Position numbers and translations under genes: made by a program | DNA from: a virus | Taxonomy: Duplodnaviria > Heunggongvirae > Uroviricota > Caudoviricetes | IMG/VR virus record: IMGVR_UViG_2698536647_000005 | Direction: 5' to 3' (one strand) | DNA length: 25,289 nt | Shown: positions 12,027 to 17,170 of the stretch, in pieces | Layout of the letters: each line of letters starts with the position of its first letter | How positions within the stretch are numbered: position 1 is the first letter of the stretch | Notes under the pieces: model-generated | Seen by the model: the letters and a program-made list of their open reading frames with translations, nothing else | The model's database searches: none | What the model was told of the DNA's origin: nothing

Positions 12027-13018
12027 GAGCTCTGCTTACCCCCGAGATCGCCCATCGTATGGGGATTGTGCTGTTCCGTCCCGGTACGGAACTGATGCAC
12101 CTCTTCATGCGTGGTCGCGTTCTGCTCGAGCCTGAACCAGAAGAAATGGCGTCATTCAGTACCGGGGCTGTTCCGGCAGCCATTCAGCCGCTAGCTGATG
12201 ATCCGGTAATGCGTCAGGTCTTCGAGAATGAGAGGGTTATTCAGCGTGCCGGTGGGCTTCCTTCCCTTGAGCAATGGTTGAGTAATCGGTTTGAATGCCA
12301 GTGGCCACATTCAACGTGGCACGACAAGAACTTCACAACAATGCGGCACCCACCAGGAAGTATTCGCCTGTGCTGGCATTGCGATCACACTTTGTCGGGG
12401 CAGCATACCGAACAGCTTGCAGGTATAGCGGCCGGAAACCTGGTATCCTGGATTCTGGAAGTCATTCGGCGTGATTCTGGTTTTCCCGAGTCGCATATCC
12501 TGACGCTTCCTGAACTGTGCTGGTGGATGGTCAGAAACGACCTGGCTGATGTTATTCCGGAAAGCGTTGCGCACAAAGGGTTGCGCCTTCCGGATGAGAA
12601 GATCCGTTCTGTCATGAGGGAAAGCGACATAGTGCCTTCCTCGTCAGCAACCAGACTCGTGCAGGAGAAGGCGAAGAAGATCCTCACGCTCTCTGTTGAT
12701 CCGGAGTCGCCAGAGTCTTTTATGCTCAGGCCAAAACGTCGCCGCTGGATAAATGAGACGTACACCCGCTGGGTTAAAACACAACCCTGTGAGTGTTGCA
12801 GACGGCCAGCAGATGATCCGCACCATATCGTAGGGCACGGTATGGGTGGTACAGCAACAAAAGCCCATGACCTCTTCGTGATCCCTCTGTGCAGAGAGTG
12901 CCACGACGAGTTACACGCCGATGTACCAGCATTCGAGCAGAAGCATGGTACGCAGCTTGAGCTGCTACTGCGTTTTATTGATCGAGCACTGGCGATCGGC
13001 GTAATTGCGACAGCTTAA
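12023..13018 (+). CDS. Nin-region DUF968-like protein with an HNH-like Cys/His motif at the C-terminus (putative nuclease)
   Basis: GTG at 12023 overlaps the upstream stop. C-terminal CECC ... HHIVGHG ... CRECHDELH resembles a zinc-bound HNH fold. The exact start is uncertain: in-frame ATG codons lie at 12059 and further downstream. Confidence 0.5.
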   Translation: MRALLTPEIAHRMGIVLFRPGTELMHLFMRGRVLLEPEPEEMASFSTGAVPAAIQPLADDPVMRQVFENERVIQRAGGLPSLEQWLSNRFECQWPHSTWHDKNFTTMRHPPGSIRLCWHCDHTLSGQHTEQLAGIAAGNLVSWILEVIRRDSGFPESHILTLPELCWWMVRNDLADVIPESVAHKGLRLPDEKIRSVMRESDIVPSSSATRLVQEKAKKILTLSVDPESPESFMLRPKRRRWINETYTRWVKTQPCECCRRPADDPHHIVGHGMGGTATKAHDLFVIPLCRECHDELHADVPAFEQKHGTQLELLLRFIDRALAIGVIATA

Positions 13019-13034
13019 GAAGTATGGAGACCGT

Positions 13035-13127
13035 ATGAATCTGGACAATGTTTTAAAGTTTTTTGCGCCTAAAGGCATGCACATCTCAGATACCAGCAGA
13101 GCGACAGCAATCTTCCTGCCTCAATGA
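13035..13127 (+). pseudogene. 30-codon ORF whose product resembles the N-terminus of the downstream Q-like protein; likely a recombination remnant
   Basis: My translation MNLDNVLKFFAPKGMHISDTS compared with MKLEASLKHFSPQGMHISDDV at 13307 (same strand, about 270 bp apart). Confidence 0.3.
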
Positions 13128-13303
13128 TTCGCTTGTTGAAGCAACGAGAGGGCGAAGGGTGGATCGGTGACATCGGAGCTAATTTCGACTCTCGCTCTCA
13201 CCAGTTCCTGGAAGGCGAGAAAAAACCATTTAACTACCTGGTCGTTAAGCCGCAAAGCGAGTTTGATCTCGAGTGGGAAGCCAGCAACGTAACGAGGGTT
13301 TGA
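13124..13303 (+). CDS. Small hypothetical nin-region protein, 59 aa (below the track's length cutoff)
   Basis: ATG at 13124 overlaps the stop of the preceding short ORF (ATGA). My translation: MIRLLKQREGEGWIGDIGANFDSRSHQFLEGEKKPFNYLVVKPQSEFDLEWEASNVTRV. Confidence 0.35.
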   Translation: MIRLLKQREGEGWIGDIGANFDSRSHQFLEGEKKPFNYLVVKPQSEFDLEWEASNVTRV

Positions 13304-13306
13304 GAT

Positions 13307-14143
13307 ATGAAACTTGAAGCTTCACTAAAACACTTTAGCCCTCAGGGTATGCACATCAGCGACGACGTGAAAGGAACCTCTCCGGACCGCCTTACAGGAA
13401 CAGATGTAATGGCGGCAATTGGCACCACCAGCAGCCGTGCGCGCTTCGGACTGGCGGCGTTCTTCGGTAAAGCGGGAATCAGCAAAACGGATGAACAGCT
13501 CGCAGTTCAGGCGCTGGCGCGATATGCGATGGATGTCGCACCGAAGAATGTTCGCAAAGCAGCTGGTGGGCAGTTCGGATGGTGCATGCAGATGTTGGCA
13601 CAATTTGCCTTTGCTGATTATTCACGTTCGGCGGCTACAAGCGTGACGTGTCACAGCTGCAGTGGTACCGGACGAACAACCCGCGAACAGATTACCCGCA
13701 AGGTTTCGTACCCATGGGGTAAAGCTCCATACTGGGCCTGCCGCTCTCGTGCTGTTCGACCGTCTGACTGGGAGCAGTGGATGGAGGTAACAGAGGTTGT
13801 ACCGGCGGTCTGTGATGCTTGCGAAGGCAAGGGAACGATCAGCGCCCGTTGTCGTTGCGGCGGTAAAGGCGAGGTTCTAGACCGCAAGGCCACAAGCGAG
13901 CGCGGCGCGCCGGTGTTTAAAACCTGCGAGCGCTGCAGCGGAAATGGATTTTCTGCGGTGCCGTCTACCGCAGCCTATAAAGTGATACTGAAGCGCGTTC
14001 CGGATCTGCACGTCAGAACATGGACTCGCAACTGGAAACCGTTTCTTGAGGCGCTGGTAAGCATTTGTCAGCAGGAGGAGGGAAACGCCGCAAGAGAATT
14101 TCAATCTGCAACCAGTTTAGGCGAAGAAGGTGACGAAATTTAG
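13307..14143 (+). CDS. Putative late-gene antiterminator (Q-like), Cys-rich with DnaJ-type CxxCxGxG repeats, 278 aa
   Basis: Last gene before a promoter-plus-terminator unit and the lysis cassette, which is the Q position. Three exact CxxCxGxG repeats (CHSCSGTG, CDACEGKG, CERCSGNG) and one variant (CRCGGKG). The functional call rests on position only. Confidence 0.45.
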   Translation: MKLEASLKHFSPQGMHISDDVKGTSPDRLTGTDVMAAIGTTSSRARFGLAAFFGKAGISKTDEQLAVQALARYAMDVAPKNVRKAAGGQFGWCMQMLAQFAFADYSRSAATSVTCHSCSGTGRTTREQITRKVSYPWGKAPYWACRSRAVRPSDWEQWMEVTEVVPAVCDACEGKGTISARCRCGGKGEVLDRKATSERGAPVFKTCERCSGNGFSAVPSTAAYKVILKRVPDLHVRTWTRNWKPFLEALVSICQQEEGNAAREFQSATSLGEEGDEI

Positions 14144-14162
14144 CATTATTACGACATAAGGC

Positions 14163-14192
14163 TTGATTTTGTCCGAAGTTGTCGTGTATGCT
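14163..14192 (+). promoter_or_regulatory. Putative late promoter (pR'-like)
   Basis: TTGATT (14163-14168), 18-nt spacer, TATGCT (14187-14192), about 40 nt upstream of a strong terminator. Would give a transcript of roughly 50-60 nt, analogous to lambda 6S RNA. Confidence 0.35.
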
Positions 14193-14232
14193 TCTAATCA
14201 TGCGGAGTAACGCCTGAAAGATTTAAACAATA

Positions 14233-14254
14233 AGCCCCTTGCGGGGCTTTTTTA
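14233..14254 (+). terminator. Intrinsic terminator (tR'-like), possibly bidirectional
   Basis: Stem AGCCCC, loop TTGC, stem GGGGCT, then TTTTTT. Abuts the stop codon of the convergent minus-strand gene 14252-15202. Confidence 0.7.
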
Positions 14255-15202
14255 TGGCAGCGAGTTAACGAAAGAACTGAAAAGGGCCTTATCTTTATTG
14301 CTAATTGATTTTTTCAAATGTAGTTGATGATTTAAAGGTTTAAAGTTTTCCTTTGTGAGATATATACATGCTTTCTCAAAACGATCCTGAAGGAATTGAA
14401 ATCTTTCATTCAGCCTGGAAACTTTTAATCCTAATGACATGACCTTCTTCTCAGGAATATCGTCAGGATTGCAATTATTGAGTTCTTCCAGCACAAGGCG
14501 AATATCTCTTTCGAAGATTAGCGCTATGTTATAATCGTTGAGGAGGCATTCAGGATTACGAACAATGCCAATTACTTCGTCGATGAATTGTGGTTTTACA
14601 TTATCCTCAGCATTTTCATCTTCGTTATCGGAAGGTTTTTGAGACATAACATTCGACAACTGCATTTCTTCCTTGGTTTTCCTTCTGGGAAGTAAAACTT
14701 TTCCATCTCCTAAAGCAGCCATACGTTTCAAAGCTTGACTCCCGGCTCGGCCAACTACTTTAGAATCTCTTAAATCTAAAATTTTATGTGCGACCCATTC
14801 TAATGATGGTTCACTGGCTTCGATTTTGGCTTTTGCTTGGTAATGGAGAAAAATATTTTTCTTGGCTTCCTTGAGGGCTGTTAGATATCTGTGGAAATTT
14901 GCCTTTTTCTCGAGGTCAGTGGCTAGGTTTTCAAATGCTATACCGAAGACTTTTGTACCGCAAACGTGACCCAGGTTCGTCTCCAGACCATCCTCAGTAA
15001 GAACAAGAAACCCTTTTTTATGGCCTGTTCGACAGCTCGACTTGCCACACGGGATTTCTTCCGGGAGGTCATCATAATAACCAAAAACATCGGATAATTG
15101 TTGATCGGTCAGTTCCAGCCTGGAATGATAGCTTTCCCGAGCTTGAATTTCTGTCCAGTCATTAATGCGATCAAAGCTATTGCCGTTTTTAATAAAAATC
15201 AT
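14252..15202 (-). CDS. Orphan hypothetical protein, 316 aa, low GC, antisense to the late operon (cargo gene)
   Basis: Uninterrupted 951-nt ORF with an AAGGGA ribosome-binding site. Visibly more AT-rich than flanking phage DNA (my estimate; not computed). Opposite orientation to all neighbours. Contains a C-x4-C ... H ... H-x-C cluster but no motif I recognise. Confidence 0.6.
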   Translation of the reverse strand: MIFIKNGNSFDRINDWTEIQARESYHSRLELTDQQLSDVFGYYDDLPEEIPCGKSSCRTGHKKGFLVLTEDGLETNLGHVCGTKVFGIAFENLATDLEKKANFHRYLTALKEAKKNIFLHYQAKAKIEASEPSLEWVAHKILDLRDSKVVGRAGSQALKRMAALGDGKVLLPRRKTKEEMQLSNVMSQKPSDNEDENAEDNVKPQFIDEVIGIVRNPECLLNDYNIALIFERDIRLVLEELNNCNPDDIPEKKVMSLGLKVSRLNERFQFLQDRFEKACIYLTKENFKPLNHQLHLKKSISNKDKALFSSFVNSLP

Positions 15203-15317: not shown

Positions 15318-15394
15318 TCTTGCTCCCGGCCCTTTAGCTCAGTTGGTTAGAGCGTGCGACTCATAATCGCCCGGTCGCTGGTTCAAGTCCAGCA
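15318..15394 (+). tRNA. tRNA with CAU anticodon, ileX-like (tRNA-Ile2; tRNA-Met not excluded)
   Basis: Cloverleaf folded by hand: acceptor stem GGCCCTT/AAGGGCC, D-arm GCTC..GAGC, anticodon loop CTCATAA, T-arm GCTGG TTCAAGT CCAGC, 3' CCA. Close to E. coli ileX as recalled from memory. Confidence 0.8.
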
Positions 15395-15396
15395 AG

Positions 15397-15470
15397 GGCC
15401 ACCAGACCGCCACTAGCTCATCGGGAAGAGCGGCAACCCAGGTGTTGTGGTACGGGGTTCGAGGCTCCGG
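15397..15470 (+). tRNA. tRNA-like element with a non-canonical anticodon loop (possible pseudo-tRNA)
   Basis: Perfect acceptor stem CCGCCAC/GTGGCGG with discriminator and CCA, a D-arm GCTC-ATCGGGAA-GAGC and a T-arm CGGGG-TTCGAGG-CTCCG. The anticodon arm folds only as stem GCAAC/GTTGT with a 6-nt loop CCAGGT, or as a 4-bp stem with an 8-nt loop; no 7-nt loop is possible. Confidence 0.5.
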
Positions 15471-15482
15471 TGGCGGACCACT

Positions 15483-15558
<76 letters not shown>

Positions 15559-15561
15559 TAT

Positions 15562-15636
<75 letters not shown>

Positions 15637-15831: not shown

Positions 15832-15856
15832 AGCCTCGCTTCGGCGAGGTTTTTTC
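15832..15856 (+). terminator. Intrinsic terminator
   Basis: Stem AGCCTCGC, loop TTCG, stem GCGAGGT, then TTTTTT. Confidence 0.65.
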
Positions 15857-16073
15857 ATTTGTAAGACAACCATCAGGAAGCAATGGCTAATCTCATTGAC
15901 TGCAGGAATAAGTTCGGCGTAATTTATTTCTGTGGTGAATCCTTTCTAAGCGAAAGGGCGTTCCAGCCAACTGCTATCTGCAGGTATGCGCGCGACTTTG
16001 CTGGCTGGAGTAGAGTCACCGGGAGGCACCCGGCACCATGACAACTACAATACAAGTTTCAAATTCCTTGAGA

Positions 16074-16101
16074 GCCTGCCATTAAACGCAGGCCTTTTTT
16101 T
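16074..16101 (+). terminator. Intrinsic terminator
   Basis: Stem GCCTGC, loop CATTAAAC, stem GCAGGC, then CTTTTTTT. Confidence 0.6.
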
Positions 16102-16240
16102 ATGGTTTTGCAAACTGCTGCTACGCTTTGAGTTGTGGGAAGTAACTGAATGCCCGGTGGTTCTCCTGGACCGATAGTGAATCAGCCGATACAGCTTCAC
16201 CTCTGAGCATAAGTCTTACTCACACCTACCTTACAAATAG

Positions 16241-16269
16241 TCAACTCATTAGCCCGCTATCAAAAGCGG
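16241..16269 (+). terminator. Intrinsic terminator immediately upstream of the lysis cassette
   Basis: Stem AGCCCGCT, loop ATCAAA, stem AGCGGGCT, then TTTTTTT. Confidence 0.7.
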
Positions 16270-16380
16270 GCTTTTTTTATTTCAGGCTCCGGGAACCATC
16301 ATCGACATGACTGCTTGTTAAATCGTCCCGAGGGCCTGACCCCTTACACACAGCTCCCGCCATTACGCGAGGAGATAGAG

Positions 16381-16629
16381 ATGATCCGATATATGCCTGA
16401 CAAAATTGCATCCGCAGTCTCGTATTGCGTGTCCGGCAGTCTTATTTGTGGAGGCGGCATTTTGCAATGGTTGCACGACCTCGACTGGAACAAGGTTGCA
16501 GTGATTGGCGGATTTCTTATCGGCATCGCCACATACCTGACCAACCTTTACTTCAAAAGACGCCAGACCAAGGCATACGAGAAGGCCCTAAAGAAGGGCT
16601 ACATCACCGCGCCACCACAGGATAACTAA
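16381..16629 (+). CDS. S: Pinholin, S21-like, with a dual-start motif (second ATG at 16393), 83 or 79 aa
   Basis: GAGGAG ribosome-binding site. Two transmembrane segments and a basic C-terminus; IATYLTNLYFKRR matches the P21 S21 pinholin signature LTYLTNLYFK recalled from memory. The MIRYM double start is typical of holin/antiholin pairs. Immediately followed by a SAR endolysin. Confidence 0.8.
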   Translation: MIRYMPDKIASAVSYCVSGSLICGGGILQWLHDLDWNKVAVIGGFLIGIATYLTNLYFKRRQTKAYEKALKKGYITAPPQDN

Positions 16630-16630
16630 C

Positions 16631-17170
16631 ATGGCATCGATCAGAGCAAAACTAAGCGCAGCTATGCTATCCCTGATCGCCGCTGGTGCTTCAGCTCCTG
16701 TGCTGTTTGACCAGTTCATCAGTGAGAAGGAAGGCAATGCGCTCGTTGCTGTGATGGATCCCGGTGGCGTCTGGTCACTATGCCATGGCGTAACAGTTAT
16801 CGACGGCAAGCGTGTCGTAAAAGGCATGACTGCTACCGAAGCGCAATGTAAGAAGGTGAACGCGATTGAGCGTGACAAAGCGCTTGTATGGGTCGATAGG
16901 AATATCAAGGTTCCACTGACAGCGCCACAAAAGGTAGGCATTGCGTCCTTCTGCCCGTACAACATTGGTCCAGGTAAATGCTATCCATCGACCTTCTACC
17001 AGCGAATCAATGCCGGTGACCGGAAAGGGGCCTGTGAAGCTATCCGCTGGTGGATTAAAGACGGTGGCCGCGATTGCCGCCTAACCAAAGGCCAGAAGAA
17101 TGGCTGCTATGGTCAGGTTGAGCGACGGGACCAGGAAAGCGCGCTGGCGTGCTGGGGGTTAGACCAATGA
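16631..17170 (+). CDS. R: SAR endolysin (phage lysozyme with N-terminal signal-anchor-release domain), R21-like, 179 aa
   Basis: N-terminal hydrophobic Gly/Ala-rich segment (LSAAMLSLIAAGASAPVL). Catalytic Glu ... Asp ... Thr spacing (EGNALVAVMDPGGVWSLCHGVT) as in T4 lysozyme and P21 R. Start is 1 nt after the holin stop. Confidence 0.85.
   Translation: MASIRAKLSAAMLSLIAAGASAPVLFDQFISEKEGNALVAVMDPGGVWSLCHGVTVIDGKRVVKGMTATEAQCKKVNAIERDKALVWVDRNIKVPLTAPQKVGIASFCPYNIGPGKCYPSTFYQRINAGDRKGACEAIRWWIKDGGRDCRLTKGQKNGCYGQVERRDQESALACWGLDQ

Follow-up and report, generated by a model that had tools for sequence, protein, structure and literature searches.

A phage Q gene of the lambda Q family with four conserved cysteine motifs, probably folded as two tandem zinc ribbons, in a lambdoid prophage

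Results

Identity and family of the gene

The open reading frame at positions 13307 to 14143 (plus strand) of the window, by which is meant the whole stretch of 25,289 nucleotides analysed here (Caudoviricetes record IMGVR_UViG_2698536647_000005), is very probably the late antiterminator Q of a lambdoid prophage. It would be a Q of the phi80 type within lambda Q's own family, equipped with tandem zinc ribbons and working by a lambda-like mechanism. The membership of the family, the conservation of the cysteine motifs, the position of the gene, and the conserved layout of the promoter and terminator that follow it are established, and antitermination activity would be expected from the homology with lambda Q. 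As a member of the Q-lambda family, the gene is already annotated in E. coli genomes. The features discussed below are collected in Table 1.

The reading frame is intact, starts with ATG and encodes 278 amino acids. It matches the Pfam family PF03589 (Antitermination protein Q) with 180.6 bits (cut-off 26.7, E = 6e-54) and PHROG 127 ('anti-termination protein Q-like') over its full length (E = 4e-101). When the protein is compared by phmmer with the sequences of solved structures, the only significant matches are lambda Q chains (7UBM, E = 3e-39; 4MO1, E = 1e-28; 7UBJ, E = 2e-22). In the alignment with 7UBM_Q, residues 1–125 correspond to lambda Q 1–128 and residues 179–262 to lambda Q 115–199. 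The identity with phi80 gp17 (Q) is 40% over 263 amino acids (E = 3e-67). The same gene is present on E. coli chromosomes at 99.8% DNA identity, where its RefSeq name is 'antitermination protein'. Homologues of 260–278 amino acids are widespread in the Enterobacteriaceae; the domain precomputed for them is PF03589, often accompanied by PF00684.

PF03589 is the Q-lambda family, one of three unrelated Q families, the others being Q21 (PF06530) and Q82 (PF06323) (Yin et al. 2022, PMC9388147). The first-pass annotation of this DNA had taken the gene for a Q antiterminator situated upstream of a promoter-terminator unit and the lysis genes, and on both counts the evidence agrees: the former with the PF03589, PHROG 127, lambda Q and phi80 Q matches, the latter with the genes found around it. 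Its two alternatives fare differently. A distinct Q family is rejected on the strong homology to PF03589, lambda Q and phi80 Q, as the bit score of 180.6 and the E value of 3e-39 place the gene in the lambda Q family, and a different late regulator is likewise not supported. Of the checks that it proposed, the Pfam comparison of the Q families with the DnaJ cysteine-rich domain puts PF03589 above its cut-off and PF00684 below. In a Foldseek search of the PDB with the full-length AF2 model, the top eight matches are all Q-lambda, with local similarity and high rmsd; the confidence of this model is poor (pLDDT 62.8, pTM 0.28), that of a model of the arm only is moderate (pLDDT 69), and matches to DnaJ-type folds are weak. 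A role in anti-phage defence was also considered and rejected, PADLOC having no match for Q or for the neighbouring 316-aa ORF.

Table 1. Coordinates of the Q gene, its parts, and the late promoter region in the window
Feature	Position	Strand	Description
Q gene, late-gene transcription antiterminator (very probable)	13307..14143	+	Q-lambda family, phi80-type long-arm form, 278 aa
N-terminal ~60 residues	13307..13486	+	homologous to the disordered lambda Q N-terminal segment (phmmer 1-125 vs lambda 1-128)
Motif 1 CHSCSGTG (aa 115-122)	13649..13672	+	predicted first knuckle of the extra zinc ribbon; C115, C118, G120, G122 invariant in 98 homologues
Insert between motifs 1 and 2 (aa 123-168)	13673..13810	+	predicted long beta-hairpin; contains KVSYPWGKAPYW...RAVRPSDWEQW
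Motif 2 CDACEGKG (aa 169-176)	13811..13834	+	predicted second knuckle of the extra zinc ribbon; invariant cysteines
Motif 3 CRCGGKG (aa 182-188)	13850..13870	+	counterpart of the lambda Q C118/C121 knuckle (MAFFT alignments)
Motif 4 CERCSGNG (aa 207-214)	13925..13948	+	counterpart of the lambda Q C144/C147 knuckle
C-terminal body region (aa 215-262)	13949..14092	+	homologous to the part of lambda Q holding the QBE-recognising helix-turn-helix; aligned to lambda Q 152-199
PR'-like late promoter	14163..14192	+	-35 TTGATT 14163-14168, 18-bp spacer, -10 TATGCT 14187-14192; read from the sequence
Candidate Q-binding element subsite TGTCCGA	14170..14176	+	1 nt past the -35 hexamer; by position relative to the phi80 Q site
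Candidate sigma-dependent pause element	14196..14205	+	-10-like AATCAT (14196-14201), then GCGG; pattern AAnnnT + GGG
tR'-like intrinsic terminator	14232..14255	+	7-bp GC-rich stem AAGCCCC/GGGGCTT, 4-nt loop, T run
First late genes, presumed to depend on Q read-through	16315..17170	+	P21-type holin 16315-16629 (PF04971), lysozyme 16631-17170 (PF00959)

Genomic context

The window is a lambdoid prophage, in which the gene order is KilAC antirepressor, DUF968 gene, Q, PR', tR', an AT-rich gene on the opposite strand, a tRNA cluster, an STnc100-like RNA, a P21-type holin, lysozyme, and the Nu1 and gpA terminase genes. Between PR' and the holin and lysozyme genes there are three further terminator-like hairpins (15832–15851, 16074–16093 and 16251–16272).

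Upstream of Q, a 30-codon ORF at 13035–13127 (plus strand; MNLDNVLKFFAPKGMHISDTSRATAIFLPQ*) resembles the N-terminus of the Q-lambda family, its first residues matching those of the intact Q at 13 of 24 positions. It breaks off at 13108, where near-identity to the DNA of E. coli FAM21845 begins (position 209 of the query 12900–14400), and this break is probably the scar of the recombination that swapped in the present Q module. In FAM21845, Q is preceded by a hypothetical gene of 116 aa, whose tail may be represented in the window by a 59-aa ORF at 13124–13303. In that strain (NZ_CP017220; L003 7946–16704), a Q module 99.8% identical to the present one lies right after a complete second late-control and lysis set consisting of DUF968, a DUF1133 protein, two holins and a GH19 lysin, and is followed by its own holin and lysozyme. 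Since two late-control regions are present, the prophage of FAM21845 must be tandem or mosaic.

Downstream of Q, the 316-aa ORF at 14252–15202 (minus strand) abuts the tR' hairpin and has a GC content of 0.36–0.42, compared with 0.52–0.58 in Q. It has no match in Pfam or PADLOC. Its E. coli counterparts are named 'hypothetical protein' in RefSeq; for one strain an 'AAA family ATPase' is listed under the match, which may be the same gene. It has the look of a moron, with its insertion site between tR' and the tRNA genes. Because it lies on the opposite strand directly after the terminator, a Q-modified transcript would have to cross it in the antisense direction.

The tRNA cluster (15328–15636, plus strand) contains a tRNA with a CAT anticodon (Met according to ARAGORN; Ile in RefSeq at the homologous E. 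coli locus), Thr(TGT) and Gly(TCC). An odd tRNA-like gene with an unassignable anticodon, at 15407–15480, is called by ARAGORN only and is absent from Rfam and RefSeq. Between the cluster and the holin gene, at 15899–16105 (plus strand), Rfam finds an STnc100 sRNA (53.1 bits, gathering score 47). A 2026 preprint describes STnc100 as a relative of PasD and reports that, in most cases, PasD sRNAs are linked to Q genes of PF03589; the commonest prophage neighbours of STnc100 listed there include a 'Fels-1 prophage chaperone'. This neighbour may be a long-arm Q that was misnamed through the DnaJ-like motif.

Four cysteine motifs

The first-pass annotation had described three exact and one degenerate CxxCxGxG repeats in the central region of the protein, and exactly these are found in the translation: motifs 1, 2 and 4 are exact, while motif 3 is CxCxGxG, one residue shorter between the cysteines. 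When the protein's own residues were shuffled 200,000 times, one exact motif arose 572 times, two arose twice, and three never arose; the motifs are therefore not due to chance. In an alignment of 98 non-redundant homologues, all eight cysteines are invariant, as are G120, G122, G174, G186, G188, G212 and G214. The cysteine motifs are thus real and under selection. The four are predicted to be zinc knuckles.

The same annotation treated the feature as one not known from the lambda, 82 or 21 Q proteins. For lambda this is mistaken: lambda Q and P22 Q (207 aa) each have two exact CxxCxGxG motifs, CRDCHGTG at 118 and CGRCKGVG at 144, the cysteine pairs in lambda Q being C118/C121 and C144/C147. 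This pair of motifs forms a zinc ribbon known as the 'Q-lambda arm' (residues 114–152), in which residues near the zinc ligands touch positions 11–13 of the Q-binding element, the tip touches the repositioned sigma region 4, and, in the pre-engaged complex, the beta' zinc-binding domain is touched by the ribbon (PMC9388147). In the window protein, the cysteines of motifs 3 and 4 (C182, C184, C207 and C210) are invariant and align with lambda C118, C121, C144 and C147, and the segment between the two motifs (EVLDRKATSERGAPVFKT) is homologous to that of the lambda arm (RAVDIAKTELWGRVVEKE). By this alignment, the single zinc ribbon of lambda Q has its counterpart in motifs 3 and 4. The shortened form of motif 3 is typical of the family, and many short-form Qs share the context 'ARCRC.G.G', with the same one-residue deficit.

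Pairing of the motifs

Relative to lambda Q, the window protein has an extra segment of about 67 residues, which holds motifs 1 and 2 and is shorter in other long forms. Short-form Qs keep only the counterparts of motifs 3 and 4, and across the family motifs 1 and 2 either occur together or are both missing. The spacing is nearly constant from motif 2 to motif 3 (13 residues) and from motif 3 to motif 4 (25–26; 25 in the window and 26 in lambda), whereas 3 to 52 residues are inserted between motifs 1 and 2, depending on the family member.

The AF2 models contain two 12-residue strands between motifs 1 and 2 (123–134 and 157–168) and, between motifs 3 and 4, a short strand-helix-strand like that of the lambda arm. 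For the hairpin (123–168), the mean pLDDT of 10-residue blocks is 73–89 in the two models, full-length and arm-only. The two strands can pair only with each other, and so would bring knuckles 1 and 2 together. When the module of motifs 1 to 2 is aligned by hhalign to that of motifs 3 to 4, motif 1 falls on motif 3 and motif 2 on motif 4 (92% probability, E = 5e-7), a match that is driven largely by the short Cys/Gly motifs.

Two arrangements of the zinc ligands may be weighed with these data. In the E. coli DnaJ cysteine-rich domain, studied by Martinez-Yamout and colleagues in 2000, zinc is reportedly held by the motif pairs 1+4 and 2+3 of a nested hairpin. A Q antiterminator with a true DnaJ-type domain would likewise hold its zincs by 1+4 and 2+3 in a nested, V-shaped hairpin, and lambda Q would then be a form from which the distal zinc module was deleted. 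Such an arrangement appears improbable, as the indel pattern, the spacing, the AF2 secondary structure and the hhalign result favour pairing of 1+2 and 3+4 over nested ligation. On these grounds and that of homology, the likely architecture is two tandem zinc ribbons. Motifs 1 and 2 would most likely constitute a second ribbon, which arose by internal duplication, was inserted just before the lambda-type arm, and carries a long variable beta-hairpin.

Likeness to DnaJ

The likeness to DnaJ is confined to the knuckle motif, and the protein is not a chaperone. The DnaJ cysteine-rich domain PF00684 scores 27.8 bits, below its cut-off of 32.7. The NCBIfam DnaJ models match only residues 165–215 (about 50), at 14–22 bits against cut-offs of 338–502 (TIGR02349, 21.9 against 377). 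No J domain (PF00226, HPD motif) is found at E ≤ 1 in the Pfam scan of the protein, and neither the DnaJ C-terminal domain nor the G/F region was found in it. In the Foldseek search of the full model, DnaJA2 appears only at E = 0.69, below eight Q-lambda chains. The protein therefore differs from DnaJ/Hsp40 proteins in having neither the J domain nor the C-terminal domain and, with its sub-cut-off score, from the PF00684 domain itself and its small relatives anti-TRAP and BSD2. The motif spacing is 54/13/25 residues in the window Q and 17/22/14 in E. coli DnaJ.

It is accordingly extremely improbable that the protein is a DnaJ-like chaperone or a thiol-redox zinc-finger protein instead of a transcription factor, despite the sub-threshold model matches, the chaperone names borne by two homologues in NCBI/UniRef, and the chaperone listed by the preprint among the common neighbours of STnc100. 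Besides the missing domains and the short, weak matches, a true chaperone is contradicted by the strong, full-length homology to lambda Q, by a gene position and a downstream promoter-terminator unit which are those of Q, and by the Pfam domain of the chaperone-named homologues, which is PF03589. These homologues are long-arm Q-lambda proteins (P0131 and P0154, called 'molecular chaperone' and 'Putative chaparone') that have no J domain, and their names probably reflect a drift of annotation from the CxxCxGxG motifs. The literature on QuuQ/ydfT and on the chaperone-named homologues yielded nothing on protein architecture.

Late promoter, Q site, pause element and terminator

Following the stop codon of Q, the elements occur in the order TTGATT, 18-bp spacer, TATGCT, TCT, AATCAT, GCGG, and a hairpin with a T run. 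The unit was compared with those of lambda, P22, phi80 and seven other phages, the elements being assigned by similarity. Its layout matches the annotated pR' of phi80 and the PR' of lambda and P22. Both promoter hexamers, and the spacer in part, are conserved in SaltyDalty, YP3 and Klebsiella phi15.1, phages with Qs 67–88% identical to the window Q. In a generic promoter scan, the site at 14163–14192 was not listed.

In lambda and P22, PR' reads TTGACT-17-TAAATT TGACTC AACGAT, followed by GGG (lambda) or GGA (P22). The corresponding sequences are TAAATT CGTCAT AATGAT GGG in mEp460, TAAGAT TTTCCC AACGAT GGG in the Stx2k phage, and TTGCAT-17-TAGATT CATCTCT AACGCT GGG in phi80; close relatives have AATCGT followed by GGG or GGA. 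In lambda, this recurring AAnnnT+GGG constitutes the sigma-dependent pause element (PMC9388147). From the start of the -35 hexamer to the pause-like element, the distance is 33 bp in the window and 33–36 bp elsewhere. In contrast, the gap between the -10 hexamer and this element is only 3 bp in the window, as against 5–7 bp in Pm34, lambda, P22, mEp460, the Stx2k phage and phi80. With a gap of 3 bp the pause-like element would overlap the expected start site, and the assignment of either the -10 hexamer or the pause element may therefore be off. Alternative -10 hexamers giving a lambda-like offset of 6 bp were sought, and no candidate combines an A at position 2 with a T at position 6, as would be required.

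The first-pass annotation had raised the question of a Q-utilisation site overlapping the promoter at 14163–14192. A candidate is provided by TGTCCGA, which is at the place equivalent to the annotated gp17(Q) site of phi80, TCGCGGA, likewise beginning 1 nt past the -35 hexamer; related TCCGRA words are at the same place in YP3, Pm34 and mEp460. The assignment of TGTCCGA as a subsite of the Q-binding element, like that of AATCAT GCGG as the pause element, is inferred from position and similarity, and both are to be regarded as candidates.

Among the close relatives, changes in the C-terminal body of Q go with changes in the promoter spacer, the window and YP3 having one version, and SaltyDalty and Klebsiella phi15.1 the other (spacer GCATAAAA in SaltyDalty or Klebsiella phi15.1). 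This co-variation fits a Q/QBE module, and physical linkage alone could give the same pattern.

The 60-nt leader folds at -17 kcal/mol, and the fold of the terminator is modestly better than those of shuffled sequences (z = -1.9). An equivalent hairpin and T run are present in SaltyDalty, Klebsiella phi15.1, Pm34, mEp460, the Stx2k phage, ES18, P22 and phi80.

Discussion

Proposed mechanism

By homology with lambda Q, the protein would bind the Q-binding element in the spacer of the late promoter (14163–14192; candidate subsite TGTCCGA) and engage RNA polymerase held by sigma70 at the promoter-proximal, -10-like pause element (AATCAT GCGG, 14196–14205). Its N- and C-terminal segments would then refold into a nozzle at the RNA-exit channel, and Q would travel with the polymerase, allowing read-through of the terminator at 14232–14255 and of the later hairpins, and thereby expression of the tRNA, lysis and morphogenesis genes. 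In lambda Q, the N-terminal segment refolds into the nozzle, and the body and its helix-turn-helix have been described (PMC9388147). A nozzle role for the N-terminus of the window Q, where the AF2 pLDDT is 30–47 over residues 1–42, would follow from this homology.

By region, the identity to phi80 Q is 60% in the insert hairpin, 65% between motifs 2 and 3, 31% in the motif 1 knuckle, and 34–46% in the other regions. The hairpin is more conserved than most of the rest. It is conceivable, if rather doubtful, that the second zinc ribbon and the hairpin make a contact which lambda Q lacks; the candidate partners are NusA, the beta' zinc-binding domain, sigma region 4 and an additional DNA subsite. 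In that case, the geometry with which long-arm Qs are loaded onto the paused polymerase would be a different one, which could fit the unusually small gap that separates the pause-like element from the -10 hexamer in the window.

The cysteine motifs thus appear to be the known zinc-binding arm of the family, present twice. The gene is a routine Q, and its importance lies mainly in correct annotation, since the DnaJ-like motif has led some databases to misleading 'chaperone' names for its homologues.

Comparison with known Q proteins

Four-knuckle Qs are also found in ES18 (gp73), mEp460, a Stx2k phage, Vibrio phage Pm34, and others. Among 59 full-length representatives of 50%-identity clusters, drawn from a search of 1.84 billion proteins and biased to relatives of the query, 31 have at least four CxxC/CxC knuckles and 13 have two. 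The long-arm form, which includes phi80 Q, thus makes up about half of the sampled clusters of the family. Q-loading structures so far cover only the short-arm Q of lambda, and a search of solved structures returned lambda Q chains only, with no long-arm Q among them. The structures of lambda Q are 4MO1 and 7UBJ–7UBN. Vorobiev and colleagues are said to have reported 4MO1 in 2014, and phi80 Q was reportedly the subject of work by Guo and Roberts in 2004.

The window Q is homologous to lambda Q and P22 gp23 in the N-terminal segment, in the zinc ribbon and in the two halves of the body, and with lambda it also shares the gene position and the PR'-SDPE-tR' cassette. It differs from lambda Q, which has 207 residues and one zinc ribbon, in having about 67 more residues, which add two knuckles and the long hairpin.

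The likeness to phi80 Q (gp17, JX871397) is closer in form. This protein has 269 residues, compared with 278 in the window Q, and is annotated as a late antiterminator with a mapped Q site in pR'. Its knuckles are at the positions of those of the window Q (CDCCDGGG at 115, CKPCNGKG at 169, CRCHGKG at 182 and CDRCGGRG at 207), motif 3 being CxC here as well, and it shares the insert hairpin KVSYPWGK.PYW...RAVRPSDWE.W, which is 60% identical. The promoter of phi80 has a spacer of 17 bp with the pause-like element 7 bp past the -10 hexamer, whereas that of the window has a spacer of 18 bp and a gap of 3 bp. The C-terminal body and the promoter spacer also diverge between the two (TCGCGGA in phi80, TGTCCGA in the window), and a different DNA specificity is therefore expected.
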